A stretch of DNA of 64,000 nt, from assembly GCA_009772985.1 (NCBI GenBank), contig WOUS01000012.1, forward strand, positions 46,044-110,043, given 5' to 3'. This DNA is from Anaerolineaceae bacterium (GTDB lineage Bacteria; Chloroflexota; Anaerolineae; Anaerolineales; Villigracilaceae). Made by a program: the position numbers and the translations under genes. Every line of letters starts with the position of its first letter. Within the stretch, counting starts at the first letter, position 1. The notes beneath the pieces were generated by a model. The model made no database searches and was not told where the DNA came from. It saw nothing but the letters and a program-made list of their open reading frames with translations. Shown piece by piece: positions 18,881 to 32,388 of this stretch.

Positions 18881-19045
18881 TTACCTGCCCCCGCGCGATG
18901 CCAATCCCTTCGGATCGAGCAGGATGACGGCTTTGTTATCCCGCAACCCCAGCGCTTTGGTGGGACAGGCGCGCACACACAATCCGCACCCATCGCATCG
19001 TTGCGGGTCAATCATTGGAATGGGTCTATCGTTGAAATAAGTCAT
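18881..19045 (-). pseudogene. truncated ferredoxin paralog (54 codons, one cluster motif only)
   Basis: My translation is MTYFNDRPIPMIDPQRCDGCGLCVRACPTKALGLRDNKAVILLDPKGLASRGGR*. The first 26 residues are identical to 14066..14329 and the second Cys motif is lost. It is too short for the ORF track. Confidence 0.6.
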
Positions 19046-19064
19046 TCATGCTCCAAAATAAAAC
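18967..19064. repeat. 98-bp perfect direct repeat, copy 2
   Basis: Identical to 14251..14348. Confidence 0.95.
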
Positions 19065-19722
19065 CTTTATCCAAAATCTGGATTTGATGACGCTCCACGC
19101 GGATCATTTCCTTTTCCGCCAGTTTACGCAAAGCACGGTTGAGCACGTCTGGCACAGTGCCGAGGCGGGAAGCCATTTCGGCTTGTGTAGCCCACTGCCG
19201 GCGCTGCACCGACGCGCCCTCCGCCTGTTCCAGCAAAAGCCGCGCGAGCCGCGCTTCCACCGAACGCAGGGACAGGTCCTCCACCAAGCGGATCAGGTAC
19301 TGCACCCTGCCCGCCAGTTCCCGAATCACCTGACGCGCCAGGGAGGGATGCTCCTCCAGCAGTTTCAACAGGGCTGCACGTTGAACCAACCAGATCGCCG
19401 AAGTCTCCAGCGCCGTGACGGTGGCCTGGTTGGGCGCGTCGGTGAACACGCTGAGCGCATTGAAAACATCCCCAGGTCCCAGCGTTTGCAATATTTGCTC
19501 GCGGCCATCCATGCCGATTTTAGAGACCTTCAGCCAGCCGTTTTCAAGGATGTGCATGCCCGAACAGGGTTCGCCCTCCAGCAGGATGACCTGCTCCGCG
19601 TCATAGACGCGTCGAAACGTTGCCCGTTCCACGGAAGTCAGCGCGGCGGCATCCAAACCCGAAAAATAGGATACGGCTTTCAAAATGTCGTGTGCTTTTT
19701 GGGGCAATTCGCTGTCACTCAT
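19042..19722 (-). CDS. Crp/Fnr family transcriptional regulator (copy 3)
   Basis: The barrel segment is VILLEGEPCSGMHILENGWLKVSKIGMDGREQ. It shares the LVEDLSLRSVEARLA motif with copy 2. The HTH is TQAEMASRLGTVPDVLNRALRKL. Confidence 0.9.
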   Translation of the reverse strand: MSDSELPQKAHDILKAVSYFSGLDAAALTSVERATFRRVYDAEQVILLEGEPCSGMHILENGWLKVSKIGMDGREQILQTLGPGDVFNALSVFTDAPNQATVTALETSAIWLVQRAALLKLLEEHPSLARQVIRELAGRVQYLIRLVEDLSLRSVEARLARLLLEQAEGASVQRRQWATQAEMASRLGTVPDVLNRALRKLAEKEMIRVERHQIQILDKGFILEHE

Positions 19723-19918: not shown

Positions 19919-20299
19919 ATGAACACAACCCTCAACAAAATCGCATCTGGTCTGGCCTTCCTCATCGGCGGCATCGCAGTGGTCGCGGGCGGGCTGGTCC
20001 TGCTGGGCCAGGAAACCGATTATCTGGTCATCAACTGGCTTCTGCTCTACAACTACACCGTCGGCGTACTGACCGTGTTCCTCACCGCCATCCTCATCTG
20101 GAGAAATAGCAAACTCGCCCTGCCGGCCGCCCTCGCGACCTTCGGCGCGCATACCGGCGTCATGCTGATCCTGCTGACCGCCTATCGCGGCGTCGTTTCG
20201 ACACACAGCCTCGAGGACATGACGGTGCGGATCGCCGCCTGGCTGATCATTCTGACCCTGATGTTTTTCCAGTTGCGGAAAAACAAGGCGGCAAAATAA
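19919..20299 (+). CDS. 4-TM membrane protein, unknown family (family A)
   Basis: AAAGGAG RBS. It is a paralog of 20995..21390 (TLNKIA..LAF(L/I)IGG...NWLLLYNY / DWLVVYNF). Confidence 0.8.
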   Translation: MNTTLNKIASGLAFLIGGIAVVAGGLVLLGQETDYLVINWLLLYNYTVGVLTVFLTAILIWRNSKLALPAALATFGAHTGVMLILLTAYRGVVSTHSLEDMTVRIAAWLIILTLMFFQLRKNKAAK

Positions 20300-20371
20300 C
20301 ACTTCTGGCGCTTGTTTTACGATTTGGAAAAGGCCGATACGATAAAAGTCGTATGCAAAAAGCAGGTCCGT

Positions 20372-20387
20372 CTGTACACTGGTACAG
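20372..20387. promoter_or_regulatory. palindrome CTGTAC-ACTG-GTACAG upstream of BON gene
   Basis: A perfect 6-4-6 palindrome 27 nt upstream of the ATG at 20414. Confidence 0.25.
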
Positions 20388-20413
20388 ATGAACCTGTTAT
20401 TTGGTAAAACGAT

Positions 20414-20692
20414 ATGTTCCATACCCCTGATCAAAACACCGATGAAAACCTGCGCGCCGCGATATTGGTCCGCTTCGCCGCCGATGACCGGACGGCCTCT
20501 GCCAGTCTGCGCGTGGGCGCGCTGAACGGGATCATCCACCTGGCAGGGACAGCCCCATCACCGGAAGCGCGCCTCGCCGCGGCCGAACTGGCCGGGAGCG
20601 TGTCGGGGGTGCGCGGCGTGGTCAACCGGATCGAAGCGCCCGGCGCGCCCCGCCCGGCGCGGACAATCAATTTGGATTTGCAAGGAAAGTAA
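20414..20692 (+). CDS. BON domain protein
   Basis: LRVGALNGIIHLAGTAPSPEARLAAAELAGSVSGVRGVVNRI fits the BON (OsmY-type) pattern. No signal peptide was seen. Confidence 0.7.
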   Translation: MFHTPDQNTDENLRAAILVRFAADDRTASASLRVGALNGIIHLAGTAPSPEARLAAAELAGSVSGVRGVVNRIEAPGAPRPARTINLDLQGK

Positions 20693-20713
20693 AAGCGAAA
20701 AGGAAATCGTGAA

Positions 20714-20992
20714 ATGACAAAATTCTGGAGTAAATGGTTCCGTAAATTCCACCGCTGGATCGCGATCCCGACCGCCCTGGCCATCCCGGCCGCGCTGGTC
20801 ATCAAACTGATCGGCGACCCCAAAATTGTGGCCGCCTGGGAAAAACTGGATAAGATCCCGTCCATTTTGATGCTGATCATGGCGCTCAGCGGATCCTATC
20901 TATACCTGCTGCCCTATATCGTCAAGGGGCAACGGAAGAAGAGAATCGCCATCTCTCAACCCGAAAACCGCCAGACACTAAAGGAGATTTGA
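20714..20992 (+). CDS. small 2-TM protein with PepSY-TM-like helix
   Basis: FRKFHRWIAIPTALAIPAAL resembles the PepSY-associated TM helix motif. 92 aa. Confidence 0.55.
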   Translation: MTKFWSKWFRKFHRWIAIPTALAIPAALVIKLIGDPKIVAAWEKLDKIPSILMLIMALSGSYLYLLPYIVKGQRKKRIAISQPENRQTLKEI

Positions 20993-20994
20993 TC

Positions 20995-21390
20995 ATGAAA
21001 ACGAAGACCACTCTGAATAAGATCGCGGCCGTCCTGGCCTTTATCATCGGCGCAATGTCTATTTTCGCCGGCGGGCAAGTCTTCCTGGGCATCCTTCCCG
21101 ATTACTACGTGATTGACTGGCTCGTGGTCTACAACTTCGTGGCCGGCATCGCCTCGGCATTCTTTGCGGCCATCGTCATCTGGAAGAACAGCCGTCTGGC
21201 CTTTCCATCCGCCATCACGATCTTCAGCCTGCACGCCGCTGTGATGGTCATCCTGCAGACAGCTTACAGTGATGTAGTTGCACCGGACAGCATCAAAGCC
21301 ATGACGGTCCGGCTTGTATTCTACACAATTATCTTAACCTTGTTATTCATTCAGCAGAAAAAAATCAAAAAACAAGGAGATATGGCATGA
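20995..21390 (+). CDS. 4-TM membrane protein (family A paralog)
   Basis: An AAGGAG RBS lies 8 nt upstream of the ATG at 20995. It is similar to 19919..20299 along its full length. Confidence 0.8.
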   Translation: MKTKTTLNKIAAVLAFIIGAMSIFAGGQVFLGILPDYYVIDWLVVYNFVAGIASAFFAAIVIWKNSRLAFPSAITIFSLHAAVMVILQTAYSDVVAPDSIKAMTVRLVFYTIILTLLFIQQKKIKKQGDMA

Positions 21391-22184
21391 AAGGCAACAA
21401 CAAATTAGGGGCTTTCCTGGCTGTCGTCGGCGTCCTGACCGGATTGCTGGTCTTCTATCTGCTTGCCAGTCAATACAACCTGGTGATTGATGCAAAGACC
21501 GTCGCGGGGCGGACGGATGAGGCTACCTCCGTAACAATCACCTATGCCGTGCTCGGGTGGATCGGGATCACGGCTGGGGCAATCTGGGCGGCGGTTCTTT
21601 ACGGCTTCCTTAACAAGGAAAAATGGGCCTGGCTCTGGGGCGCGGTGGCCGCGACGATCCAACTGCTGGTGGGCTTCTTCCCGATGATCCCCGCCATGGA
21701 CAGCCACCTGCCGACACCAACGATCGCGATTTTCATCCTGGCCGCCATCCTGTGGTTTGGGATGCTCTTCATTGGCGGTGTCGAGAAAAAGATCATAGCT
21801 TTAACCTTCATCGCAGGGCTGGCTTACGTGCTGACGTTCATTGACGGCGTCGCGCCCATTTCCAAGTACACCACCTCGCATGATGATCCCTTCTGGAACG
21901 GCATGTATGTCATGTCACAACAGGTCAGTTGGTGGGGAGCGGCGGCCTGGGCGGTATTCATCTTTGCCGTGTTCGGGAAGAAATCCTGGGCCATCCCCGT
22001 AGGTATTTTTGCGGGCGCCATGTCCATGCTGGCTGGATATCCGCTGGGGCTGCATAACGCGCTGTTCGAGGTGCATCGCTTCTCAATGTTCCTGCCTGCG
22101 CCGCTTTTCGGCACCGGATTGTTAATCTACCTGCTGCTGCCGTCCACGCGGAGAATGCTCGCAGCGTGGAATACGAAAGAATAG
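21387..22184 (+). CDS. polytopic membrane protein (family B)
   Basis: Its start overlaps the previous stop (ATGA). 265 aa. It has an internally repeated motif: KEKWAWLWGAVAATIQLLVGFFP and KKSWAIPVGIFAGAMSMLAGYP. Confidence 0.85.
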   Translation: MKGNNKLGAFLAVVGVLTGLLVFYLLASQYNLVIDAKTVAGRTDEATSVTITYAVLGWIGITAGAIWAAVLYGFLNKEKWAWLWGAVAATIQLLVGFFPMIPAMDSHLPTPTIAIFILAAILWFGMLFIGGVEKKIIALTFIAGLAYVLTFIDGVAPISKYTTSHDDPFWNGMYVMSQQVSWWGAAAWAVFIFAVFGKKSWAIPVGIFAGAMSMLAGYPLGLHNALFEVHRFSMFLPAPLFGTGLLIYLLLPSTRRMLAAWNTKE

Positions 22185-22304
22185 CGAGGCGCGCCTCAGG
22201 CCTAATTTAACAGACCGTTCTGCAGGTTATAATATTCCCACAACATTTCACGAAAAACCTGCAGAGCGATCAATAAAATCACTTTTCTTTGAAGGAGGTT
22301 CGTT

Positions 22305-23093
22305 ATGAAAGGCAATACCAAACTTGGGGCTGTCCTGGCCGTTCTCGGCATCCTGACCGGATTTCTGGTTCTCTTCCTGCTGGCAAGCACTTACATGCCA
22401 ATTGTCGAAGGGAAAATCCTGGACGGGCGGCCGGATGAAGCCATCACGGTGCGGATTGTTCATGCCCTGCTGGGCTGGGCGGGGATGGCTGCCGGGGCGC
22501 TATGGGTGGCCGTGCTTTACGGCTTCCTGACTAAAAAGGAATGGGCCTGGGGTTGGGGCGTGGTTGCCGCGACGGCGCAAATCCTGGCTGGCTTCTTCCC
22601 GATGATTCCAGCCGCCAGCATCAGGATGCCCACCCCAACAATATGGGTGTTCCTGATCGCCTTCGCCTTGTGGTTCGGGATGCTCTTCATCGGCGGCGTG
22701 AAAAAACAAATCATCGCCCTGGCGTTCGTCAGCGGACTGGCTTACGTGCTGACGTTCATTGACGGCGTCGGTTCCATCTCGCGTTATCAAACGTCTGACA
22801 ACAGTTTTGCCATTGGGATGTACGCCATGGGACAGATGATCAACTGGTTGGGCGCAATCGTCTGGGCGGTGTTCATTTACGCGCTGGTGAAAGGAAAAAC
22901 ATGGGCTTATCCCGTGGGACTTTTCGCCGCATCCATGTCCATTTTTGGCGGCTATCCCGTAGGTCTCACGGATATCTTCCAGATCGGGCGCTTCTCCATG
23001 TTCCTGGTTGCGCCGGTGATGAGCACGGGCCTGCTGGCCTACCTGCTCCTGCCGGGGACGCGCAAAATGCTCGAGAAATGGGCGGCAGGATAA
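22305..23093 (+). CDS. polytopic membrane protein (family B, tandem paralog)
   Basis: GAAGGAGG RBS. 262 aa, collinear with 21387..22184 (MKGN.KLGA.LAV.G.LTG...). Confidence 0.85.
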   Translation: MKGNTKLGAVLAVLGILTGFLVLFLLASTYMPIVEGKILDGRPDEAITVRIVHALLGWAGMAAGALWVAVLYGFLTKKEWAWGWGVVAATAQILAGFFPMIPAASIRMPTPTIWVFLIAFALWFGMLFIGGVKKQIIALAFVSGLAYVLTFIDGVGSISRYQTSDNSFAIGMYAMGQMINWLGAIVWAVFIYALVKGKTWAYPVGLFAASMSIFGGYPVGLTDIFQIGRFSMFLVAPVMSTGLLAYLLLPGTRKMLEKWAAG

Positions 23094-23116
23094 AGGTCCG
23101 GGCAAAGGCGCGGGTT

Positions 23117-23132
23117 TGTGACCTTTGTCACA
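23117..23132. promoter_or_regulatory. perfect CRP-consensus palindrome TGTGA-N6-TCACA
   Basis: The sequence is tgtgacctttgtcaca. Its centre lies about 30 nt upstream of the TGcAATAAT extended -10-like element at 23151..23159. That places it near -41.5 of a predicted start site (class II geometry). Confidence 0.55.
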
Positions 23133-23230
23133 GCAGTGGACCGGTTCATGTGCAATAATATTCTCAGTAACCCGCTGTAAACCAACGGGTTAAATTCATG
23201 GAGGTGTTCCCCTCCAAAAGGAGAATGATT

Positions 23231-23848
23231 ATGAACCTGTTCACCCTCGACAATCTGTTCCTTCTGCTCACCGGCCTGACGGCCATCTACCTGCTGTGGC
23301 GCTTCTACACTCGCTGGAGCAAGGGTAAAGCCCTTTATGATATGTACTACATGATGGGCTTCCTCGTCCTGCTGGTCTCCGGCCTGCTGCTCATCTTCCT
23401 GGGACTGGGCATCCTGGCCTCGCCGTACGTACTGACGGTGGCCTCGCTCATCCCGCTGGGCATTTCGATGGGCATCGTCGAAGAGTACTTCCCGCAGTGG
23501 AAGAAGGCTTTCAAGTGGTTTGCGCTGGTCGGCTTCCTGGCGATTGCGATATCGGCCATCTTCGGGATGGACATCGTCAAGAAGATCTCCGTCCCGCTCT
23601 TCCACGGCGTGGCCGGATTGGTCATCTTCCTCGGCCCATTCATGGCTAAGAAAGCGCCGAAAGGCTTCTGGTGGGTCGGCATCGGCGGCGTACTGATCGG
23701 CCTCGGCGGCATCGCCCTGGCGTTCATCTCGATGGGCGCGCAACTGCTCTTCTTCAGCCCGGCCTTCGTCATGCTCATCCTGACCCCGCTTCTGCTGCTC
23801 ATGACCCTGGCCTTCACTTTCGGCTTCGTCAAAGATATCAAAGGCTAA
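23231..23848 (+). CDS. polytopic membrane protein (family C)
   Basis: AAAGGAG RBS. 205 aa. It is a paralog of 27558..28166 (LLLTGL.A.Y...; (F/V)HG(V/L)AGL.IFL.P; VGIGG.LIG.GG(I/L)). Confidence 0.8.
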   Translation: MNLFTLDNLFLLLTGLTAIYLLWRFYTRWSKGKALYDMYYMMGFLVLLVSGLLLIFLGLGILASPYVLTVASLIPLGISMGIVEEYFPQWKKAFKWFALVGFLAIAISAIFGMDIVKKISVPLFHGVAGLVIFLGPFMAKKAPKGFWWVGIGGVLIGLGGIALAFISMGAQLLFFSPAFVMLILTPLLLLMTLAFTFGFVKDIKG

Positions 23849-24187
23849 TCTGCCTTCCTTTCAAGAGATCGAAAGGCCTGATATTGGACACGGATTGCTC
23901 GGATAGCACATTCCCACCGCTTTCCCTGTACTCCGTGTCCAATTTTATTGAATTGACAAAAGGTAAAGACTCTTCCTGAACTTTGTGCTATTTTATACGA
24001 AGACATTATTTGTAATAACACTCTTTGCATCGAAATGCCCGAATTTACCCTTCACCCTTCGGGTACTGCGCGGGTACGATGTCACGAATCTTCTTCGGGC
24101 AATTCGTAAAAATTCGATGCAAAAAACGGGCAAGTGCAATTACCGGTAAAGTCTAATAGATGTTTCGCTTTTTAAAAGGAGCCGCCA

Positions 24188-25663
24188 ATGCAGTTCATCA
24201 AAGACCGTTTCACTTACTTGTTCAAATCCACCAAGGGTTTGATCCTGGTGGCGATTGCCATGATCGCCCTGGAGACCGCCATCTTCGGGATGCTCTCCGG
24301 CCCGATGGCCGAACTGGGCGTGCGCGATTTCATGATCCGTTTCCTGAAAATGGATATCGTTCAGGCCGAGCGCGAAGGACGCATCATCATCCTGTACCAT
24401 TCCATCGCCATGGCCGTGGTCGCCATCGAGACCTACATGATCACCAGCTTGCTGAAGATGAAAGAGTTCTACAAAACAGCCGTGCGGGCGCTCGTCACCG
24501 TTGGCTACCTGCTGGTTATGCTCTTCGGCCTGGGCTTCGCTTACTGGGGCCACAACTGGGCTTTCCACGGGCTGTACATCTTCGGCCTGTCGCTCATCTT
24601 CTTCGCCGGCGTCCTGCTGACCATCGCGCTCTGGCCGTGGAACAAGGAATATTATCAGTCTGACAAGAACTATTCCCGCACCAAAAAAGGGGTGGATATA
24701 GAACGCACGGCCTTCTTTGCCACCGCCCTCACCACGGTCATCTCCGCCCTGTTCGGCGCCGTCCCCGGTTCGTTCTTCGGCAACGGATTCGAAGTCTTCC
24801 TGGCCGAGAACATCATCCGCCTGCCGGAAAAGACCACCATGGAATATTCGATCATCGGCCACCTGCACATCATGCTGGCCCTGATCGCGATCATGATCAC
24901 CCTCATCATCGGCCGCTGGCTGAACTTCAAGGGCATCCTGCACAAGGTCGCCATGCCGCTGATGATCCTCGGTACGATTGTCCTCAATCTCGGCGTGTGG
25001 GGCGTAGCCACACCGCTCGAACCCATCGCCCACACGATCATCTACGTCGGCGCGACTCCGTCCATGTTCGCGGCCCTGCTCCTCCTGATCTGGAGTTGGA
25101 ACAAACTCATCAAGGACGGCATCGCCCAAATCAAGAAGCCCAATCTCGGCGACCGGCTGCGCGCGCTCCTGCGCGACCCGCTCAAGTTTGGCCCCACCTG
25201 GCAAATGCTCTTCATGAACTTCACCACCAGCGGCATCGGCATCTTCATGGCCATCCGCCTGGAAGAGATTTTCCGCGTCTGGCCCGCCCGCGAAGAGCGC
25301 ATCGAACTGACCGGCCACTGGCACGTGCTTTCGGCCATCATCGCCACCATCATCCTGCTCTACTATGGCGATATGATCGGACTGAAAGGCAAATTGCGCC
25401 AGGTTTACGGCTGGGCCCTCATCATTCTCTCGGACATTGCCTTCGGCGCGGTCACCATCTTCGAGATGAAACGCCTGTTCATCACAGAGGCCGTACAACA
25501 GCCGCTGGTCAACGTCCTCATGTACCTGATGGACTTCGGCCTGGGAATGCTGCTCGTCATCCTGGCGATGCTCATGGTCTGGCGTTTGGCCGATTTGTTC
25601 AAGAAAAAAGGGCGCTGGAAGAAAGAAGTGGATCACGAACTTTCTGCGGAGGTGACAAAATGA
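24188..25663 (+). CDS. 12-TM His-rich membrane protein, candidate divergent heme-copper oxidase (subunit I-like) superfamily member
   Basis: AAAGGAG RBS. I count 12 hydrophobic helices. Its histidine motifs are YHSIAMAVV (H71), GHLHIM (H225/H227), AHTIIYVG (H282) and GHWHVLS (H377/H379). Their helix positions and spacing are reminiscent of COX1/NorB ligands. The gene itself is high confidence. The family call is a hypothesis. Confidence 0.6.
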
Positions 25664-26556
25664 AGCGCACTCTCTGGACCGTCATCCTGCTCGCTGCTCT
25701 CTTGGCCTCCTGCGCCCCCGTAGACCTCAACGCCCCCCTCCCCGCCTACAACACAGGCGTGGACCCGGACTCCTGGGCCGTCATCCCGGCTGGTTCCTTC
25801 CACTCCGGGCAGGCAGCCGATCCCGCTTTGATTGATTACGAATACGAGATCATGGTCACCAATGTGACCGTGGCGCAGTACGTGGACTTCCTCAACGAAG
25901 CCCTCGCCAACGGCACGCTCAAAGTGAGCGGCGACCAAATCGCAGGCTTCTATCCCGGCGACCCGTTCCACGGCGTCAAGCACGAATTCGAGATCGCCGC
26001 CACGGACTATATCTTCGTCCCGTTGAACGACCCGGCCTCCCGGTTCACGTTTGACGGAACCAGGTTCACGGTCAAGACCGGCTACGAAAATCACCCGATG
26101 ACGAACGTCTCCTGGTTCGGCGCGTGGGGCTACTGTACTTACTACGACTACCGGCTGCCGACCGAACTCGAATGGGAAAAAGCCGCCCGCGGCTCCGCTG
26201 ACGACCGCCCATTCCCGTGGGGCTACGACATCGCCCGCAACAACGCCAACTTCTACGCCAGCCGCGATCCGTTCGAGGACATGTCCACGTTTGGCTCGCG
26301 CACTACCCCGGTCGGCTTTTATAACGGGCAGACTTACGGGGATTACGCCACGCTCAACTCCGCCAGCCCCTACGGCCTGTACGACATGGCTGGTAACGTC
26401 TGGCAGTGGACCGGCAACGTGTACGAAGGCATGCACTACCGCTTCATGCGCGGCGGCTCGAAAGACACCTACGATATGGACCTGCGTATCTGGGTGCGCA
26501 ACAACGCCACTCCGACGTACTATAGCCCTGGGGTGGGATTCAGGTGCGCGAGATAG
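25660..26556 (+). CDS. FGE-sulfatase (SUMF1/NirV/EgtB-C) domain lipoprotein
   Basis: Its start overlaps the upstream stop (ATGA). The signal is [18 protein letters not shown]. It has the motifs [31 protein letters not shown] and [18 protein letters not shown]...GFRCAR. Confidence 0.9.
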
Positions 26557-26645: not shown

Positions 26646-27527
26646 ATGACCGCCCTCGCCGCCCAATCGAAAATCGTAAATCTGAAATCCAAAATAAGGT
26701 TGTACTGGCCGCTCACCAAATCCCTCCAGACCGGCCTCCTGCTCTCCACCGGCCTGGCGGGATACATGTCCGCGCGCTGCCCGGTGATGCACTGGTATGA
26801 CTTCCTCGGGCTGGGCGTCAGCCTGTTCCTGGCAATTGCCGGCTCGACCATCCTCAACATGTGGTACGACCGCGACATCGACTCGGTCATGAACCGCACC
26901 CACCACCGCCCGCTGGCGGATGGACGCGTTTCTCCCAACGAAGCCCTGCGCCTGGGGCTGATCCTTTCGGCTCTGGGCATCGGCATGGCCGTGGCAATGA
27001 GTCCGCTCTACGGGCTGGTGGTCTTTGCCGGACTGTTCTTCGATGTGGTCGTGTACACCATCTGGCTCAAGCGGCGCACCTGCTGGAGCATCGTCTGGGG
27101 CGGGATCTCGGGCGGCATGCCCATCCTGGCCGGGCGCGCTTTCGGTCTCGGCCACATGGACGGCATCGGCATCCTGCTGGCGCTGGCCGTCCTGTTCTGG
27201 ATCCCCACCCACATCCTGACCTTTTCGATGCGCTACTTCGACGACTACCGGGCCGCGAAAATCCCGACCTTCCCGTCCGTGTACGGGTTCCCGGTCACGC
27301 GCGCCACGATCGCCGTTTCCAGCGTCATCGCCGCTCTGAGCATCGGCGCAGCGGGAATCATGATCGGGATGGAATGGGGCTACCTGCGCCTGCTGGCCGT
27401 CCTCTCCGCCGGTCTGCTGGCGCTGGCCGTCGCCAGCGTCTTCCGTCCCTCCGAGCGCGTCAACTTTGGCCTGTTCAAGTACGCTTCCGTCTATATGCTG
27501 GCCGCAATGATCCTGATGATGTTTTAA
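26646..27527 (+). CDS. ctaB: protoheme IX farnesyltransferase (heme O synthase), UbiA superfamily
   Basis: AGGAG RBS. The motif NMWYDRDIDSVMNRTHHRPLADGRVS closely resembles the COX10/CtaB signature D-x-x-M-x-RT-x-x-RPL-x-x-G. 293 aa, about 8-9 TM helices. Confidence 0.75.
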   Translation: MTALAAQSKIVNLKSKIRLYWPLTKSLQTGLLLSTGLAGYMSARCPVMHWYDFLGLGVSLFLAIAGSTILNMWYDRDIDSVMNRTHHRPLADGRVSPNEALRLGLILSALGIGMAVAMSPLYGLVVFAGLFFDVVVYTIWLKRRTCWSIVWGGISGGMPILAGRAFGLGHMDGIGILLALAVLFWIPTHILTFSMRYFDDYRAAKIPTFPSVYGFPVTRATIAVSSVIAALSIGAAGIMIGMEWGYLRLLAVLSAGLLALAVASVFRPSERVNFGLFKYASVYMLAAMILMMF

Positions 27528-27557: not shown

Positions 27558-28166
27558 ATGAAAATATCCCCCCTTGATCGCATTCTCCTGCTCCTCACTG
27601 GCTTGCTGGCGGCGTATCATATTGTTGTCGGCATTGAAGGCTTCGCCAGCCTGCCCGCCATCGCTTACACCATCGCCTTTGGCGTTCTGTTGATTGCGGG
27701 ATTACTGCTCATTCTGCTCGGCTTTGATGTTTTGGACTCGCCTATCATTGTTATCGTCTCGACGATTATTCCCCTCAGCCTTGCGACGGGACTCGTCTGG
27801 CAATACCTCGCTTCATTCGGGACCTTATACCTGGGTTTCGCCATCCTGGGTTTCCTGGCCGTGACGATCACCCGCGCCCTCCCCATCAAGACCAAACTCC
27901 CGGTGCTGGTGCTGGGGATCGTACATGGCCTCGCCGGGTTGACCATCTTCCTGCTCCCCATCATCTGGGTACTGACCGGGCGCGCCGCGCCAGGCTTCGC
28001 CCTCGTGGGCATCGGCGGCGCGCTGATCGGCATCGGCGGATTGCTGCTCTCATTCCTCAAGGCTGGCAAACCGCTCCTTTCGCGCGCCGTCATCTTCCGC
28101 CTCCTGCCCGGCTTGCTGCTCCTGATGACCGCCGCATTCGTGGCCGGGTTCGCGTTTGCAAGTTGA
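27558..28166 (+). CDS. polytopic membrane protein (family C paralog)
   Basis: 202 aa, collinear with 23231..23848. Confidence 0.8.
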   Translation: MKISPLDRILLLLTGLLAAYHIVVGIEGFASLPAIAYTIAFGVLLIAGLLLILLGFDVLDSPIIVIVSTIIPLSLATGLVWQYLASFGTLYLGFAILGFLAVTITRALPIKTKLPVLVLGIVHGLAGLTIFLLPIIWVLTGRAAPGFALVGIGGALIGIGGLLLSFLKAGKPLLSRAVIFRLLPGLLLLMTAAFVAGFAFAS

Positions 28167-28264: not shown

Positions 28265-28951
28265 ATGAGAAACAAGTGGTGGGCCAAACTGCTGCGCATC
28301 GTCGGCATCGTCTTCATGAGCCTGACTGCACTCTTCACATTGATGGGCGGCGCTGGCACAGCCTGTGTCGCCCTCAACCCGACCGGCTTCGGTGGGACAT
28401 TCGCCGGCATTGCCCCCTTCCAGTGGCTGTGGATTTTGTTCGTGCTGGTCGGCATCGCCGCCGGGATCATGGGTGTGCGCGCCGTCGTCCTGCTCATCAA
28501 AGGAATGAAGCACGCTTACCGTGACGCACTGATCGCCCTGCTGCTCGGCACGGTACTCAACGTCGTCCACCTGTTCGCATCGCGCGCCCTGCGCGGCTCG
28601 TCCATGCCCGTGGACGGCGTGCTGTACATGAACATCCTGACCCTGGTCATCTTCCTCCTGTTCCGCATCCCCGGCGTCTGGCAGGGCGTGGACTACGAGA
28701 AGCCTGCCGGCGGCGGGCAAACCGGCACGTACGCCGCCGCCATCGCCCTGGCCGCCTGCGGACTGCTCTCGCTGACCATCCAGTTCCTGATGGCCCCCAC
28801 CCACACCATCGGCGGGGTCAACTACGCGGACGCCTGGCACGCCACATTGACGGCTCTGGGCGTGGCCTTAATCCTGGCCGGCCTCGTGACCGCACTCCAC
28901 GCCCGCCGGATCACGGTCCGGCGCGCCGCGCTGCCCGAAGCCGCAAAGTGA
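28265..28951 (+). CDS. polytopic membrane protein, unknown function
   Basis: AAAGGAG RBS. 228 aa, about 6 TM helices. It is the last gene before a terminator. Confidence 0.75.
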   Translation: MRNKWWAKLLRIVGIVFMSLTALFTLMGGAGTACVALNPTGFGGTFAGIAPFQWLWILFVLVGIAAGIMGVRAVVLLIKGMKHAYRDALIALLLGTVLNVVHLFASRALRGSSMPVDGVLYMNILTLVIFLLFRIPGVWQGVDYEKPAGGGQTGTYAAAIALAACGLLSLTIQFLMAPTHTIGGVNYADAWHATLTALGVALILAGLVTALHARRITVRRAALPEAAK

Positions 28952-28970
28952 TCTCAAACGAACCGCATCG

Positions 28971-28999
28971 AAACTCCCCGTCCCGGCGGGGAGTTTTTC
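28971..28999 (+). terminator. rho-independent terminator
   Basis: aaactccccg tcccgg cggggagttt followed by tttcgtt. Confidence 0.6.
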
Positions 29000-29069
29000 G
29001 TTGTTGACATTTTACAAAATGGCGCGACAATACAATCGCAATCACTTTTGGAGGGGCGGGAGGATTCTT

Positions 29070-31331
29070 ATGAAACGCTTTCGCTTATCTTACGGGGTGG
29101 TTCTTGTCTCAGTAATTTCGTCTGTAGTGATCCTCTTCGGGGGCATCTTTGCATATCCTGCCCAGGCTGCCGGGACGCCAAAAACATCTCAACCGCTGGC
29201 TCCGTCGCCGCAAGAGGCCGATCTGTCGAGCGTTACGCTGACTCTGGCCGATCTCCCGCCGGGGTTCGAGGTAATGCCAGACAATCTGCTCGCCAATTTT
29301 CGCAGCCTGCTCGAACAGGTCAATTCTGCCGGGGGTTTCTCGAACGCGGAGATGGTGAACCTGGTCGGGTATCAAAGAATAGATTACCCATACTCCGAGT
29401 TTGTGGTCAGTTTCCTGTTAACTCCCCTGAATACCCTCCAGATCTTTCAATTCGACCAGCAACTGTCTGACCCGGACAAGTTCCTCCGAACAACCGAAAA
29501 TGCACTATCCGGTTCCGGGTTCAGCCAATTCGAGTTGATCCCTGGCTCAACCGACATCGGAGCGGCTTCGATTGGCTTTACCTGCAAAGTGGATGCGGGG
29601 GCGATCACGATCGAGGAAGATATTCTCTCGTGGCGCCGGAAGAATGTTAATGCACAAATCGCCATTTACTATTCGGAGGGATACCAGCCCACCGCAGATA
29701 TTCTGACCCTGGGCCGCACCCTGGATACCCGGCTGGAGGCCGCCGTCGGGCCGGAAACCGAGGCTGTTACCGGCGGGCCTTTCCGCCTCGCCGGGCCATA
29801 CGTTCCCGAAATTACCACCTACATCCCCACCCCGCTCGACCTGTCGCCGAAGCCGTCCGTCATCGGAACGAACCTGCTCCTGGCCGCCCTGATGATGCTC
29901 CCATTCGCCGTGGCGGCCGAGTTCTTCACCCGCACGCTGGCCGAAAACGAGAAGGCCCTGAAGCGCAGGATCCGCCCGATGAACTGGTTCGCCCGCCTGC
30001 AGGAACGGATGGCCGGATTCTTCAAGACACGTTTCGGCGACGTGCTGAAAGTTTTCGTTGTAATGATTTTCTACGGCCTGGTCTTCTCCCTGCTCGATAA
30101 GACCTGGAATCCGTTCAGCCTGAAAGGGCTGATCCTGTTCGGCTCCATGACCATCGCCTACGGTCTGGTGGGGGTTGCCGACGACATCCTGCAATGGCGC
30201 CGCATCCGCCGCTGGGGACTGGCCGCCGAACTCAAGGTGCGGCCCGCCAACATACTGCTCGCCGCGCTGTCCACCGCCACCAGCCGGATACTTTCCCTCG
30301 TCCCCGGCCTGATGTTCGGCACGCCCGAAGCCCTCGAAACAGACGACAAACAATTCGATGCGTCGAAACGCAACACCCTGCTAAAAATCAGCGGTTTCAC
30401 CTTCGCCATCATCGGCCTGACCGTCTGGCTGCCGACAGTCGTCACCAATTTGCTCCAACGCATCAACCTGCTTCCATCCGTTTTGAACAACCTGCTGGGC
30501 GGGTTTGAATCCATTCTGCTGGTCATCTTCGCTGTCGCCCTCGAAAACCTGTTCGTCCAGATGCTCGGCTTTCCCGGCAGTTTCGGCCATTCGCTGAAAC
30601 GCCGCAGCCGCTGGCTGTGGATCGGCCTGCTCGTACTCGTGGCCTTCGTGTTCTACCACACACTCATCAATCCTCGCGGCGGACTGGCCTCCGCCATCCA
30701 GGAGGGCAACGTCATCCTGTTCCTGAGCGTGGCCGCCGCCTTCGTGGTCTTCACCTTCGGGATGCGGCTCTTCTTTAGGATTCGGAACCGGCGCGCCGAG
30801 AAGCGCGGGACCGTCTCGCCGCTTCCCGCGACGCCAGAACCTGCCGCGCCCGCTCCCACCGCGCCCTCCGCCGGACCCGCTCCCGCGAAGCCGGTCCCGG
30901 CCGCGCCCGCTCCGGCTGCTCCTCCGCCGGCAACCGTCGCCGTGCCGCCCGTCACCGCCGTGCAAAAGGCCCCGGTCACCGTCCCGCTGGCGGGAGAAAA
31001 GCAGTGTCCCGTCTGCGGCGAAAAGATCAAGGCGGAAGCGAAGTTGTGCCGCCACTGCCGGGCGACCTTCACCGTGACGCGCAAGGGCTACTGCCTGACC
31101 GACCACGATGTGGTCGAGGTGAACGAGGCGGGCAAATGCGTCCGCTGCGGCGGCGAGCCGGCCGACCTGCACGTGGAGAGCCGCCTGCTGCAAGCGCCCG
31201 CCGTCCGGCCGGTGAAACCCGCCCCGCCCGCACCCGCCCCCGCGCCCGGCGCCAAACTCTGCCCCTCCTGCGGGCAGACAATCAAGGCCGAGGCAAAGAT
31301 CTGCCGCTTCTGCCGCACCATGCTCGGATGA
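29070..31331 (+). CDS. large membrane protein: secreted N-domain, about 8 TM helices, Pro/Ala-rich linker, three C-terminal zinc-ribbon motifs
   Basis: GGGAGG RBS with a start at MKRFRLSYGVVLVSV. The zinc ribbons are CPVCGEKIKAEAKLCRHCRATF, CLTDHD...CVRCGG and CPSCGQTIKAEAKICRFCRTML. Confidence 0.8.
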   Translation: MKRFRLSYGVVLVSVISSVVILFGGIFAYPAQAAGTPKTSQPLAPSPQEADLSSVTLTLADLPPGFEVMPDNLLANFRSLLEQVNSAGGFSNAEMVNLVGYQRIDYPYSEFVVSFLLTPLNTLQIFQFDQQLSDPDKFLRTTENALSGSGFSQFELIPGSTDIGAASIGFTCKVDAGAITIEEDILSWRRKNVNAQIAIYYSEGYQPTADILTLGRTLDTRLEAAVGPETEAVTGGPFRLAGPYVPEITTYIPTPLDLSPKPSVIGTNLLLAALMMLPFAVAAEFFTRTLAENEKALKRRIRPMNWFARLQERMAGFFKTRFGDVLKVFVVMIFYGLVFSLLDKTWNPFSLKGLILFGSMTIAYGLVGVADDILQWRRIRRWGLAAELKVRPANILLAALSTATSRILSLVPGLMFGTPEALETDDKQFDASKRNTLLKISGFTFAIIGLTVWLPTVVTNLLQRINLLPSVLNNLLGGFESILLVIFAVALENLFVQMLGFPGSFGHSLKRRSRWLWIGLLVLVAFVFYHTLINPRGGLASAIQEGNVILFLSVAAAFVVFTFGMRLFFRIRNRRAEKRGTVSPLPATPEPAAPAPTAPSAGPAPAKPVPAAPAPAAPPPATVAVPPVTAVQKAPVTVPLAGEKQCPVCGEKIKAEAKLCRHCRATFTVTRKGYCLTDHDVVEVNEAGKCVRCGGEPADLHVESRLLQAPAVRPVKPAPPAPAPAPGAKLCPSCGQTIKAEAKICRFCRTMLG

Positions 31332-31344
31332 GAAAGGAACAACC

Positions 31345-32388
31345 ATGAACCCGACAACCCAAAAATGCCCGATGTGCGCCGAGGAAATTCCCGCCAAGGC
31401 AACCGCCTGCCCCTTCTGCGGGACGCGGCTGGTTGACGAAACACCCGCACCGCCCGCTCCCGCCCCGGCCCGGACCCCAGTCCCGCCGCGGCCCGGGCCC
31501 GCGCAAGTTGCTCCGCCGCCGCCCGTCCGCAGGAAAAATCAATGGATCTGGTGGCTCGTCGGCGGCGGGATAGCAGGCCTCTGTTTGTGTGCCGCGCTGG
31601 CCGTGGGCGGCGTCCTGCTCTACCAGAGCGGACTGCTGTTCCCGGCCTCCCCCCTCGCGGAGCCGACCTTCTCCCCGCCGGAGGAAGCCACGGTCCAGCC
31701 TGAACCGACCGCCCCCACGCGCACAAAGACCCCGGTCCCCACACCGACCGTCAACGCCCCGGCGCAGGCCTTCGGCGACCCGATCCTGGCCGCCATCGAG
31801 GGAAGGCCGCCGCATATCACGGACGACTTCAGCCGGGACCGCGGCTGGTACGGATTTGACGGCGTCACCCAGTCGGCAGACATGGTCCTGGTTCACGATG
31901 GAGTCATCCAGGCTGCCGGCGATACGCAGCGGGTTTTCACACACATGGTCATGACATGGCCTTACGACGAATTGGACAACTACGCTGTAATGGTCGAGGC
32001 AGTCTTCCTCGCCAGCGGCGGCAGCGCCCGCGACCGCGAGATCGGCATATGCTGGTGGCCGGGGGACGAACTGGGAGAGCGGTTCTTATTGAGGGAAAGC
32101 GGGGTTTTCGAGGGGGGAACCTGCCACGACAGGGAATGCCCGGCGTTCATCTTCGGCCACATGGCCCCCATTCCGGCTGGCGAGACGGTCTCCCTGACCC
32201 TGATCCACTTGCGCGGCGAATCGGTTGTGTACGTTAACGGCGTTCCGCTTGCTTACCACAAACTTGCCATCACCGACTACTCGTCCGGTTTCTCCCTGTG
32301 CCCGCATACGTACGACGGAAAGACATCGGATATTGTTTACGACAACCTGAAAGTCTGGAACCTCGATCTGGTCCCCGGCCTGCCCTGA
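31345..32388 (+). CDS. zinc-ribbon / single-TM / extracytoplasmic jelly-roll-like domain protein
   Basis: The N-terminal zinc ribbon is CPMCAEEIPAKATACPFCGTRL. It has a Pro-rich linker and a TM helix WIWWLVGGGIAGLCLCAALAVGGVLL. The C-terminal domain ends ..DIVYDNLKVWNL, which looks LamG/DUF1080-like (weak). Confidence 0.75.
   Translation: MNPTTQKCPMCAEEIPAKATACPFCGTRLVDETPAPPAPAPARTPVPPRPGPAQVAPPPPVRRKNQWIWWLVGGGIAGLCLCAALAVGGVLLYQSGLLFPASPLAEPTFSPPEEATVQPEPTAPTRTKTPVPTPTVNAPAQAFGDPILAAIEGRPPHITDDFSRDRGWYGFDGVTQSADMVLVHDGVIQAAGDTQRVFTHMVMTWPYDELDNYAVMVEAVFLASGGSARDREIGICWWPGDELGERFLLRESGVFEGGTCHDRECPAFIFGHMAPIPAGETVSLTLIHLRGESVVYVNGVPLAYHKLAITDYSSGFSLCPHTYDGKTSDIVYDNLKVWNLDLVPGLP

Follow-up and report, generated by a model that had tools for sequence, protein, structure and literature searches.

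The window, a stretch of 64,000 nucleotides from contig WOUS01000012.1 of an Anaerolineaceae bacterium, encodes a membrane protein that probably represents a hitherto unrecognized branch, and a very deep one, of the heme-copper oxidase (HCO) superfamily, and that we propose to be a non-pumping heme O enzyme reducing NO or O2. This protein (hereafter the target) has no existing annotation and is too divergent from HCOs for standard annotation. The initial annotation of the window had suggested a very divergent HCO catalytic subunit whose active site is non-canonical, a suggestion that is supported by the fold, by the invariance of the histidines and by the register of profile–profile alignments. 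No earlier description of the family was found in the literature searched, the coverage of which was incomplete, so that its novelty is not proven.

A twelve-helix protein with an invariant set of histidines

The translated open reading frame and the predicted structure agree on a protein of 491 aa with 12 helices, as initially described. A hydropathy scan detects 11 hydrophobic segments, to which the AlphaFold2 model (pLDDT 88.2, pTM 0.90) adds helix 9, giving 12 long helices that span residues 15–34, 59–88, 93–119, 124–147, 171–195 and 217–244 (helices 1–6) and 250–274, 278–311, 331–364, 367–396, 401–426 and 434–471 (helices 7–12). The histidines are found motif by motif where they had been placed, namely H71 in LYHSIAM, H225 and H227 in GHLHIM, H282 in AHTIIY, and H377 and H379 in GHWHVLS. 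The spacings of 154, 57 and 95 residues reported for them are correct, and the reference spacing quoted for COX1 is reproduced in Escherichia coli CyoB, where H106, H284, H333/H334 and H419/H421 give 178, 49 and 86. Ten histidines are present in total, seven of which are invariant, and the pattern is far beyond chance. The seventh, H127, lies where helix 4 begins; it was missing from the initial list and is conserved in 146/146 homologs.

Conservation was assessed across 146 homologs with a length of 380 aa or more, archaeal ones included, of which 24 are less than 60% identical to the target and the most distant is ~24% identical. Within this set, H71 (144/144), H127, H225, H227, H282, H377 (145/145) and H379 (144/145) are invariant or nearly so, and the invariance of H71, H225, H227, H282, H377 and H379 that the initial annotation had put forward as a check is thereby borne out. 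The same holds for R65, Y70, R363 and E370, while position 119 is tyrosine in 144/146 sequences and phenylalanine in the other two. Of the conserved residues, H127, H227, R65, R363 and E370 lie beyond the HCO ligand set. In the abundant Chloroflexi of sediments and wastewater the family is represented in 521 species-level genomes, and its proteins form over 3,300 clusters when grouped at 90% identity. The hosts of the family are anaerobic Chloroflexi, Asgard archaea (Hodarchaeales, Promethearchaeota) and Thermofilaceae.

Fold and profile evidence for a link to the HCO superfamily

Searches of the target against Pfam and NCBIfam with hmmscan returned no family match, COX1 and NnrS included. Even at E ≤ 1, neither the target nor 18 diverse members of the family matched PF00115 (COX1), and at the same threshold none of the 18 members matched NnrS (PF05940) or any transporter family. 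Likewise, PDB sequences, HCOs among them, were matched neither by the target (phmmer) nor by the family profile (hmmsearch). The profile search against PF00115 and NnrS that had been named as a check is thus free of matches to NnrS and to unrelated transporters, and free of a PF00115 match as well, so that the link to HCOs is visible by fold and profile–profile comparison only.

The predicted structure, for which a Foldseek comparison had also been proposed, has HCO subunit I as its sole real match. Subunits I of cbb3, ba3, aa3 and cNOR enzymes in the PDB are matched with probability 1.00 and TM-scores (query-normalized) of 0.50–0.61, and HCO subunit I alone reaches TM-scores of at least 0.43, whereas the other folds listed (GPCRs, H+/Na+-PPase, NDH) do not exceed 0.22. 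The Foldseek E-values are weak (0.015–0.3, none ≤ 1e-3).

Alignment of the family profile with a profile of 11 canonical HCOs (hhalign) yields a local E-value of 1.1e-4 over 366 columns and a global E-value of 2.9e-7 over 511 columns, with a probability of 88.7%. Control profiles, reversed or block-shuffled (12 shuffles), gave global E-values of 0.2–0.9, and the collinear HCO alignment scores more than 30 units above every one of them. The strength of the profile signal varies with the HCO sequences chosen, and the sequence comparison set was without C-family and cNOR sequences. The signal is weaker with A-family HCOs only (local E-value 4e-3) and with a redundancy-heavy query of 146 sequences (global 4e-5, local 2e-3), and it is not significant when the family profile is aligned with just one sequence, be it CyoB or a gNOR, nor with four near-identical gNOR sequences. 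For the gNOR encoded at one locus of the family (L058), the homologs recovered were all relatives of at least 76% identity. We note that the single-CyoB run already places GHWH of the target upon AHFH of CyoB.

Ligand register and active site

In the hhalign register, Y119 of the target is aligned with Y173 of CyoB, H225 with H284, H227 with E286, W271 with W331, H282 with H333, T283 with H334, H377 with H419 and H379 with H421. An ungapped scan finds offset 0 to be clearly the best register for helices VII/VIII and X, and uniquely so for the H-x-H pair of helix X. H225 is placed on H284 of CyoB through the GH motif, and the ungapped scan allows H227 as the equivalent residue instead. H71 is invariant and located in helix 2, yet hhalign sets it 7 residues off H106 of CyoB, and the ungapped scan scores offsets of +6, 0 and +7 nearly equally. 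In this alignment, invariant histidines of the target match the helix VI metal ligand (H225, or possibly H227), the first histidine of the HH pair (H282) and the helix X pair (H377/H379) that binds the high-spin and low-spin hemes.

Several departures from the canonical active site had been proposed. At the helix VII/VIII pair only H282 is kept; the second histidine is missing, as proposed, and this holds family-wide. Its replacement by threonine is particular to the target sequence, position 283 across the family being Met in 117 sequences, Lys in 12, Thr in 6 and Tyr in 4. The absence of the cross-link tyrosine is confirmed and also holds family-wide: Tyr288 of CyoB lies opposite a gap in the target alignment, and no tyrosine occurs in helix VI of the target near H225 and H227, although a tyrosine supplied by a different helix might take its place. 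The additional histidine two residues beyond the helix VI ligand, H227, is invariant. The glutamate of NorB is indeed absent, with Met229 found four residues after H225 in 141/146 homologs; the methionine is not invariant, as Leu, Gln or Ala occurs in the remaining five.

Met229, as an obligatory copper ligand of a His2Met site, and E207, as a metal ligand, were given less weight as candidates since both positions vary, E207 being Gln in 23 homologs and Arg in one.

H71 and H379 share a relative depth of 0.41, while H377, H225 and H227 lie at 0.30–0.37. All conserved polar residues of the target fall within the third of the membrane nearest the periplasm; no conserved polar residue is found in the cytoplasmic half of any helix, and no equivalent of the D- or K-channel is present.

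A conserved gene cluster with heme O synthase and dedicated partners

The target gene is part of a cluster of co-oriented genes preceded by a regulator on the opposite strand (Table 1). The start codon of the gene for the FGE-fold lipoprotein overlaps the stop codon of the target (ATGA), which implies translational coupling of the two. A Cys pair that binds catalytic copper is the defining mark of a true FGE. This pair is absent from the lipoprotein, in which the lipobox Cys, C146 and the structural Cys of the GFRC motif are the only conserved cysteines, and its best NCBIfam matches (GldK, EgtB, SenA) fall far under their cutoffs. The heme O synthase scores 224.6 bits with TIGR01473 against a cutoff of 210.3.

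Table 1. Features of the target cluster, with positions in the window
Feature	Position	Strand	Description
Crp/Fnr-family regulator	19042..19722	-	cNMP-binding domain and HTH_Crp_2
Variable upstream genes	19919..21390	+	Present in just 9–19/80 loci
4-TM protein	19919-20299	+	~130 aa; one of two paralogs; among variable upstream genes
BON-domain protein	20414-20692	+	Among variable upstream genes
TM protein	20714-20992	+	92 aa; among variable upstream genes
4-TM protein	20989-21390	+	~130 aa; second paralog; among variable upstream genes
tm265	21387..22184	+	Membrane protein, no family (weak DUF7144)
tm262	22305..23093	+	Tandem paralog of tm265 (E 1e-103)
tm216	23198..23848	+	Novel ~7-TM partner protein
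AT-rich spacer	23849..24187	+	340 nt upstream of target; ~30 nt in most loci
Target gene	24188..25663	+	491-aa catalytic-subunit-like protein, 12 TM, HCO subunit I fold
FGE-sulfatase-fold lipoprotein	25660..26556	+	298 aa, lipobox LLAS/C, PF03781 6e-35
Heme O synthase (CtaB/CyoE)	26646..27527	+	293 aa; TIGR01473 2e-66
tm202	27558..28166	+	tm216 paralog (E 2e-31), same invariant His
tm228	28265..28951	+	Membrane protein, no known family; final cluster gene
Terminator-like hairpin	28970..28997	+	12-bp stem then T-run, directly after tm228

The tm216 protein carries an invariant histidine within the membrane (H136, in the motif H-x-x-A/S-G-L...P) together with a glycine zipper, GIGGxxIGxGG, and in Chloroflexi, Hodarchaeales and Infirmifilum its gene directly precedes that of the target. 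It shows no similarity to CyoC, COX2 and COX3 are likewise unmatched, and a fold search returned generic 7-TM bundles only (GPCRs, rhodopsins). Its assignment as an analogue of subunit III was rejected, given the lack of CyoC similarity and the generic fold. In tm228, Cys34, His102 and His180 are conserved in at least 95% of 51 sequences, while tm265 contains no conserved His, Cys or Met. No gene of the cluster matched COX2 or a cytochrome c, the electron entry points of the CuA and NorC type.

The hairpin after tm228 is the probable end of the operon. The long spacer in front of the target is likely to be an internal promoter or regulatory region; Rfam assigns no family to it, apart from one chance miRNA match, and no Crp/Fnr consensus box was detected in the intergenic regions of the cluster. 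The regulator has a single Cys and is thus not a [4Fe-4S] sensor of the Fnr type. The genes between the regulator and tm265 are probably accessory, in view of the few loci that contain them.

Among 80 Anaerolineales loci, the FGE-fold lipoprotein is present in 66–77, ctaB in 62–69, tm216 and tm202 in 57–64, tm228 in 51–56, tm265 in 44–50 and the Crp-family regulator in 42–43, with tm202 occupying its conserved downstream position in 57–58. The target is co-inherited with heme O synthase and the 7-TM single-His protein, and, in Chloroflexi and a diderm lineage, also with the FGE-fold lipoprotein. Indeed, ctaB follows the target in Chloroflexi, in that diderm lineage and in Hodarchaeales, and is adjacent or within the cluster at the loci L097, L098 and L091, the last from Hodarchaeales. 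The gene order is tm219, target, ctaB in Hodarchaeales, tm189 followed by the target in Infirmifilum, and Crp, target, ctaB and a tm265-family gene at L097, where the tm265 relative is thus downstream of ctaB. In another lineage the target continues at its C-terminus into the FGE domain (P0123, 785 aa), a fusion found on at least seven contigs in clusters that also contain ctaB and a polytopic membrane protein with Fe-S motifs. CopD-like and Fer4_5 genes occur at some loci, the Hodarchaeales gene adjoins an HxlR-type regulator, and MarR is also found among the neighboring regulators of the family. At L058 a gNOR operon (COX1 2e-64, COX2 6e-5) lies directly upstream of the cluster, and the divergent members at L093–L095 stand alone, with neither ctaB nor tm216.

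Comparison with known enzymes

The closest structural relatives are the ba3 and cbb3 oxidases, with TM-scores highest, at up to 0.61, for ba3 of Thermus thermophilus, and the lowest Foldseek E-value obtained for cbb3 CcoN (3mk7_G). Shared features are the H-x-H pair of helix X, the histidine of helix VI, the first histidine of the HH pair, a tyrosine aligned with Y173 of CyoB in the YPPL stretch of the III–IV loop, and the placement of all ligands at roughly a third of the membrane depth below the outer surface. The ligands of ba3 (H72, H233, H282/H283 and H384/H386) are strikingly near in number to H71, H225, H282 and H377/H379 of the target. In contrast to these oxidases, the target has no PF00115 match, lacks the second histidine of the HH pair, the cross-link tyrosine, a CuA or cytochrome c subunit and a conserved K-type channel, has the extra invariant residues H127 and H227, and is accompanied by a 7-TM one-His protein and an FGE-fold lipoprotein.

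The fold also matches cNOR (4xyd_A), with TM-scores of 0.53 and 0.57 normalized to query and to structure, respectively. With cNOR and qNOR the target shares the absence of the cross-link tyrosine, the lack of a conserved cytoplasmic proton pathway, implying that the chemistry is non-electrogenic and draws its protons from outside, and an occurrence in anaerobic organisms, here with a Crp/Fnr-family regulator in the cluster. It differs in that Met229 occupies the position of the FeB-ligating glutamate (helix VI, +4), two of the three canonical histidines are kept, no equivalent of NorC or of a quinol domain is present, and the gene is linked to heme O synthase, whereas cNOR uses heme b only. 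NnrS is a 12-TM protein of denitrifiers that is reported to contain heme and copper and is linked to NO stress. The 12-TM architecture is what the target has in common with it; no sequence similarity was seen in 18 members, the comparison being one of sequence, as NnrS has no solved structure.

Precedents for a missing tyrosine and altered CuB/FeB ligands are found in the gNOR, eNOR, sNOR and nNOR families of HCOs, and in gNOR one active-site histidine is replaced by Asp (Murali et al. 2024, PMC11214002). A gNOR-like gene adjoins the cluster at L058. However, these families clearly belong to PF00115, are relatives of the B-family and keep a cupredoxin-type subunit II, whereas the target has neither a PF00115 match nor such a subunit, and the histidine lost in gNOR is that of helix VI, whereas the target has lost the second of the HH pair.

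Proposed mechanism and alternative explanations

We infer the substrate, the hemes and the metal of the enzyme from the features described above. H71 and H379 would bind a low-spin heme and H377 a high-spin heme O, the product of the adjacent CtaB, whereas H225, H282 and a non-canonical third ligand would hold Cu or Fe beside the high-spin heme. The place of the canonical subunits II and III may be taken by the 7-TM protein together with the FGE-fold lipoprotein. The restriction of conserved polar residues to the periplasmic third and the absence of a D- or K-channel argue for protons taken from the outside and no pumping, as in cNOR and qNOR. The electron donor could be quinol or, in some lineages, an Fe-S membrane protein resembling NapH or CcoG. 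The likeliest job would be two-electron reduction of NO, or low-level scavenging of O2 or peroxide, in otherwise anaerobic hosts, a proposal that weighs the missing His-Tyr cofactor, the regulators of stress or redox type (Crp/Fnr without a Cys cluster, HxlR, MarR) and the one genome in which the target lies beside gNOR.

Oxidases have the same fold and heme ligands, and the target might be an O2-scavenging, non-canonical quinol:O2 oxidoreductase by which anaerobes are guarded against trace O2 and which reduces O2 without the His-Tyr cofactor, with H227, H127 or Y70 perhaps acting as an extra redox or proton group. Such an enzyme would agree with the classical association of heme O synthase with oxidase operons, such as cyoABCDE, with the HxlR-type regulator beside the Hodarchaeales gene, this family being sensors of oxidative and electrophile stress, and with the CopD-like and CcoG-like genes at some loci, which suggest a copper center. 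The hosts are anaerobic or microaerotolerant, and terminal oxidases in such lineages have been proposed to serve aerotolerance (bioRxiv 10.1101/2025.02.26.640444). We nevertheless consider an O2 reductase of this kind unlikely, as a tyrosine is missing from the cross-link position and its vicinity, one of the three canonical CuB histidines is lost and no cytoplasmic proton channel is conserved. Loss of the tyrosine has been argued to mark HCOs that do not reduce O2 (Murali et al. 2024, PMC11214002).

That the protein is no respiratory or detoxifying enzyme but a scaffold, chaperone or modifier for farnesylated heme, taking heme O from CtaB and delivering or converting it for canonical HCOs encoded elsewhere, appears quite improbable to us. 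A mere carrier would hardly be expected to keep, without change down to 24% identity, the full set of HCO-type ligands for two hemes and a metal site; a canonical HCO is encoded within 10 kb at only 1/82 loci, several members stand alone in their genomic context, and the dedicated partners, including the fused periplasmic domain, look like those of a holoenzyme; the very tight linkage to ctaB across domains, the canonical gNOR operon directly upstream at L058 and the lack of a recognizable electron-input subunit are nonetheless what a carrier would show. In a similar vein, ctaB itself could serve canonical HCOs encoded elsewhere, for example the gNOR at L058. We give very little credence to the idea that the resemblance to HCOs reflects a generic 12-helix architecture in an unrelated transporter or NnrS-like protein. 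The empty Pfam COX1 search, the Foldseek E-values above 0.01 and the dependence of the hhalign outcome on the profile could be read in this way, but the 18 members lack any transporter or NnrS match at E ≤ 1, the structural similarity is confined to HCO subunit I (TM ≥ 0.43, against ≤ 0.22 for other listed folds), the alignment stands more than 30 score units over shuffled and reversed controls, and four invariant histidines together with the YPPL-equivalent tyrosine are in register with functional HCO residues.

Returning to a deep HCO branch that reduces NO or O2, a bolder form, which we put forward tentatively and with considerable doubt, is that the target belongs to the most divergent HCO lineage yet, with subunits of its own and an active site made of two canonical histidines and new ligands, perhaps together with a site formed by H127 and H227 in pore A. 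These two residues would lie in pore A, which is made up of helices III–VI, and might form an additional cofactor site there; to our knowledge this pore is empty in all known HCOs. Were this so, chemistry not known for HCOs would be possible, the family would serve as an outgroup to root the tree of O2 and NO reductases, and the occurrence of heme O synthase in anaerobic lineages that have no canonical oxidases might be explained.

Implications

Nearly all O2 respiration in biology, and much of N2O production, is the work of HCOs, and their origin and first activity have long been debated, a debate hampered by the lack of a distant outgroup. The target family, lying outside PF00115 yet with the fold and heme ligands of HCOs, is a candidate for the outgroup by which the HCO tree could be rooted, and its different metal ligands and partner subunits provide a natural experiment in rebuilding the binuclear center. 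Since one host, Infirmifilum lucidum (CP062310), has been isolated and named and its genome is complete, the prediction is directly testable. Heme O synthase genes, which are now read as a marker of aerobic respiration in metagenomes, would need to be reread. The hosts live strictly or almost strictly anaerobically, relatives of the ancestor of eukaryotes being among them, and in the abundant Chloroflexi of sediments and wastewater the family may, if the proposed chemistry is correct, constitute an unrecognized sink for NO or O2.

A probable, divergent heme-copper oxidase homolog

The target gene encodes a 491-aa protein, as initially annotated, with 10 histidines and no cysteines. A hydropathy scan detects 11 hydrophobic segments and the AlphaFold2 model (pLDDT 88.2, pTM 0.90) contains 12 long helices, the number first proposed. 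His71 resides in helix 2, His225 and His227 in helix 6, His282 within the first turn of helix 8 and His377 and His379 in helix 10, as previously assigned. Judged directly from the sequence, the positive charge of both termini points to an N-in/C-in topology, which places the key histidines all within the outer third of the membrane. In the model, His71 and His379 share a relative depth of 0.41 and His377, His225 and His227 lie at 0.30–0.37, which appears compatible with a heme layer like that of heme-copper oxidases (HCOs).

Profile searches did not reveal the COX1 (PF00115) similarity sought on the basis of the initial annotation: the query, 18 family members and a family profile gave no match to Pfam (COX1 and NnrS included), NCBIfam or PDB sequences. 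Structural comparison by Foldseek against the PDB, in contrast, returned HCO catalytic subunits as the sole real matches, namely cbb3 CcoN (3mk7_G), T. thermophilus ba3, E. coli bo3, cNOR (4xyd_A) and the aa3 enzymes of R. sphaeroides, bovine and yeast (probability 1.00, TM-score 0.5–0.61, ~520–560 aligned columns, with weak E-values of 0.015–0.3), whereas GPCRs, PPases and NDH reached TM-scores of at most 0.22. Using hhalign, the family aligned with a canonical HCO profile (E. coli CyoB, six diverse plasmid-derived A-family subunits and four gNOR-like proteins) with a local E of 1.1e-4 over 366 columns and a global E of 2.9e-7 over 511 columns (probability 88.7%); the global score was 38.8, compared with 0.9–6.5 for reversed and 12 block-shuffled profiles. 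The signal varies with the profile: the A-family alone gave a local E of 4e-3 with the register unchanged, a redundant 146-sequence query gave a global E of 4e-5, and four near-identical gNOR sequences gave no signal. The protein is thus very probably a genuine remote HCO homolog that retains the heme ligands, in agreement with its earlier description as a very divergent catalytic subunit.

Residue correspondence between the target and E. coli CyoB from hhalign, with CyoB positions verified separately
Target	CyoB	Remark
Y119	Y173	Tyr of YPPL stretch
H225	H284	CuB ligand
H227	E286	
gap	Tyr288	
W271	W331	
H282	H333	
T283	H334	
E370	N412	
H377	H419	heme o3 ligand
H379	H421	heme b ligand

In an ungapped sliding comparison, no other offset rivals 0 for helices VII/VIII and X. 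Helix VI is ambiguous, such that His225 or His227 could equal the canonical ligand, and in helix II the pairing of His71 with His106 is one of three near-equal registers, hhalign favouring a 7-residue shift.

Conservation and distribution of the family

The clusters of homologues matched by a word-indexed search number more than 3,341, each labelled hypothetical and none with a Pfam domain; the best 120 are 83–93% identical, and homologues bearing an organism name belong to Anaerolineales/Chloroflexi. Exhaustive phmmer against 1.84 billion representatives yielded only 309 clusters at 50% identity. The family is narrow, yet full-length members reach ~24% identity. Relatives are encoded in 521 species-level genomes, and the family's distant members come from archaea (Ca. 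Hodarchaeales, Promethearchaeota, Infirmifilum lucidum).

Conservation was scored first in an 18-sequence alignment and then across 146 sequences, each 380 aa or longer. Apart from gaps and one disrupted sequence, His71, His225, His227, His282, His377 and His379 are invariant, including the extra histidine at +2 of the helix 6 ligand, as is His127, which the initial annotation had overlooked. Arg65, Tyr70, Arg363 and Glu370 are essentially invariant, Trp271 and Trp378 nearly so, and position 119 is Tyr in 144 sequences and Phe in two. The second histidine of the HH pair is indeed absent, but the replacing Thr283 is not typical of the family (Met in 117, Lys in 12, Thr in 6, Tyr in 4). The reported loss of the cross-link tyrosine agrees with the gap opposite Tyr288, whereas Met229, noted at +4, is present in the target but not invariant.

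Gene cluster and neighbourhood

Coordinates of the features discussed (positions in the window unless a locus in another genome is named)
Feature	Position	Description
Crp/Fnr regulator	19042..19722 (-)	upstream, divergent, single Cys
small-membrane-protein pairs	19919-23848, 27558-28166	three paralogous pairs: tm126/tm133 (E 6e-40), tm265/tm262 (E 1e-103), tm216/tm202 (E 2e-31)
tm265	21387..22184	upstream of target
tm262	22305..23093	upstream of target
tm216	23198..23848	upstream of target
spacer	23849-24187	AT-rich, 340 nt
inverted repeat, 10 nt	24025-24034, 24113-24122	TTGCATCGAA, TTCGATGCAA
target	24188-25663 (+)	491 aa
FGE gene	25660..26556	298-aa lipoprotein, FGE-sulfatase fold without catalytic Cys pair
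ctaB	26646..27527	genuine heme O synthase (exceeds the TIGR01473 cutoff)
tm202	27558..28166	downstream of ctaB
tm228	28265..28951	followed by strong terminator-like hairpin
zinc-ribbon proteins, two	29001-32388	776-aa membrane protein, long Pro/Ala-rich linker, two C-terminal zinc-ribbon motifs; then 347-aa protein
PorZ-like protein	47706-49685	659 aa, partial match to the T9SS protein PorZ (3e-20, far under cutoff)
Fe-S membrane protein	L098:9551-10573	CxxCxxC-type motifs, only faint Fer4 matches
Fe-S membrane protein	L020:3796-4629	Pfam Fer4_5 (9.5e-21)
HxlR-type regulator	L091:6482-6928	Hodarchaeales
MarR-type regulator	L094:4350-4772	
gNOR-like HCO operon	L058:4373-6441	Anaerolineaceae UBA8523, DQHW01000007.1
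BREX genes	L090:10349-15420	Infirmifilum lucidum CP062310.1; BrxL, large methyltransferase

The TGA of the target overlaps the ATG of the FGE gene (ATGA). The paralogous membrane-protein pairs matched no known family. tm216 carries a glycine zipper and one invariant transmembrane histidine, and was modelled (pLDDT 88) as a 7-TM bundle of generic type, unrelated to HCO subunits II and III. The tm216–target spacer is ~30 nt in most related loci and here contains no Rfam match or Crp/Fnr box. The 776-aa protein is followed by one of 347 aa whose N-terminus likewise has a zinc ribbon, together with a Pro-rich segment, and neither is conserved beside the cluster in other loci. The best NCBIfam match of the FGE-fold lipoprotein is the type IX secretion (T9SS) ring protein GldK/PorK. 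Since T9SS is a Bacteroidota system, the PorZ-like match is odd in a Chloroflexi genome.

Among the best 80 loci, all from Anaerolineales or Chloroflexota MAGs, the target neighbours the FGE gene in 66–77, ctaB in 62–69, the tm216/tm202 family in 57–64, tm228 in 51–56, tm265 in 44–50 and the Crp/Fnr regulator in 42–43; less common neighbours include a membrane ferredoxin of Fer4_5 (NapH/NosR/CcoG) type and a protein resembling CopD. The gene order is HxlR, tm216 homolog, target, ctaB in Hodarchaeales and Crp, target, ctaB, tm265 homolog in a 67%-GC lineage (L097), while in Infirmifilum a tm216 homolog lies immediately 5' of the target. In a diderm lineage (L098/L099), target and FGE domain form a single fused 785-aa protein, preceded by ctaB and followed by a polytopic membrane protein with Fe-S motifs; the fusion cluster has eight members, and its representative by itself occurs on seven contigs. 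Certain short-form members have solitary genes.

Fe-S-motif polytopic membrane proteins recur beside the target in two unrelated lineages (L098, L020) and may donate electrons to the complex or serve it as cupric reductases. Outside Chloroflexi the regulators are of HxlR and MarR type, not Crp/Fnr, which hints at a stress-responsive rather than respiratory role. The BREX genes, ~1 kb downstream of the Infirmifilum homolog on the opposite strand, are probably unrelated.

Proposed mechanism and relation to known families

Because the heme ligands are conserved and linkage to ctaB crosses domains, we infer a two-heme enzyme in which heme O would serve as the high-spin heme. The non-heme site would keep just two canonical histidines, with His227 or His127 as candidate third ligand; Glu207 (Gln in 23 of the 146 sequences) and Met229 are unlikely, since both vary. 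Its coupling or fusion to the target makes the FGE-fold lipoprotein a probable structural subunit that covers the periplasmic side, with tm216 as a putative further core subunit. Electrons could come from quinol, or from a NapH/CcoG-like Fe-S protein in some lineages. The conserved polar residues are all confined to periplasmic loops and the outer 0–41% of each helix and, judged by their depth, provide no D- or K-channel equivalent, a pattern that matches cNOR/qNOR and implies that the chemistry would be non-electrogenic, with protons drawn from outside. We consider this mechanism as a whole somewhat better than an even proposition.

The His-Tyr cofactor is missing, an absence that Murali et al. 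(PMC11214002) take to mark non-O2-reducing HCOs. Combined with stress/redox-type regulators and anaerobic hosts, this makes NO reduction our tentatively favoured activity, although it commands well under half of our confidence. Scavenging of O2 or peroxide, which seems rather unlikely, and other or unknown chemistry come next.

All HCO families known to date, with the recently defined eNOR, sNOR, gNOR and nNOR among them, are described as related to known ones (these four to the B-family) and as encoding CuA-type subunit II homologs (PMC11214002). In L058 the cluster is immediately preceded by a canonical, if unusual, gNOR-like operon, which has two Crp/Fnr genes, a cupin gene and a gene for a CopD-like protein at its flanks. 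In subunit I of this operon (COX1, 2e-64), Asp replaces the helix VI His (WWGLDMVADG), as in gNOR, and the accompanying 138-aa COX2-like subunit is CuA-less. This example clearly belongs to PF00115 and is paired with a COX2-like subunit. The target family fails PF00115, differs in which ligand is lost, and its partners are unrelated. We class it as a new and very deeply branching variant of the HCO superfamily that belongs to no named family; the searchable literature yielded no account of it. One preprint states that every Heimdallarchaeia lineage encodes heme o biosynthesis, which the present family might help to explain.
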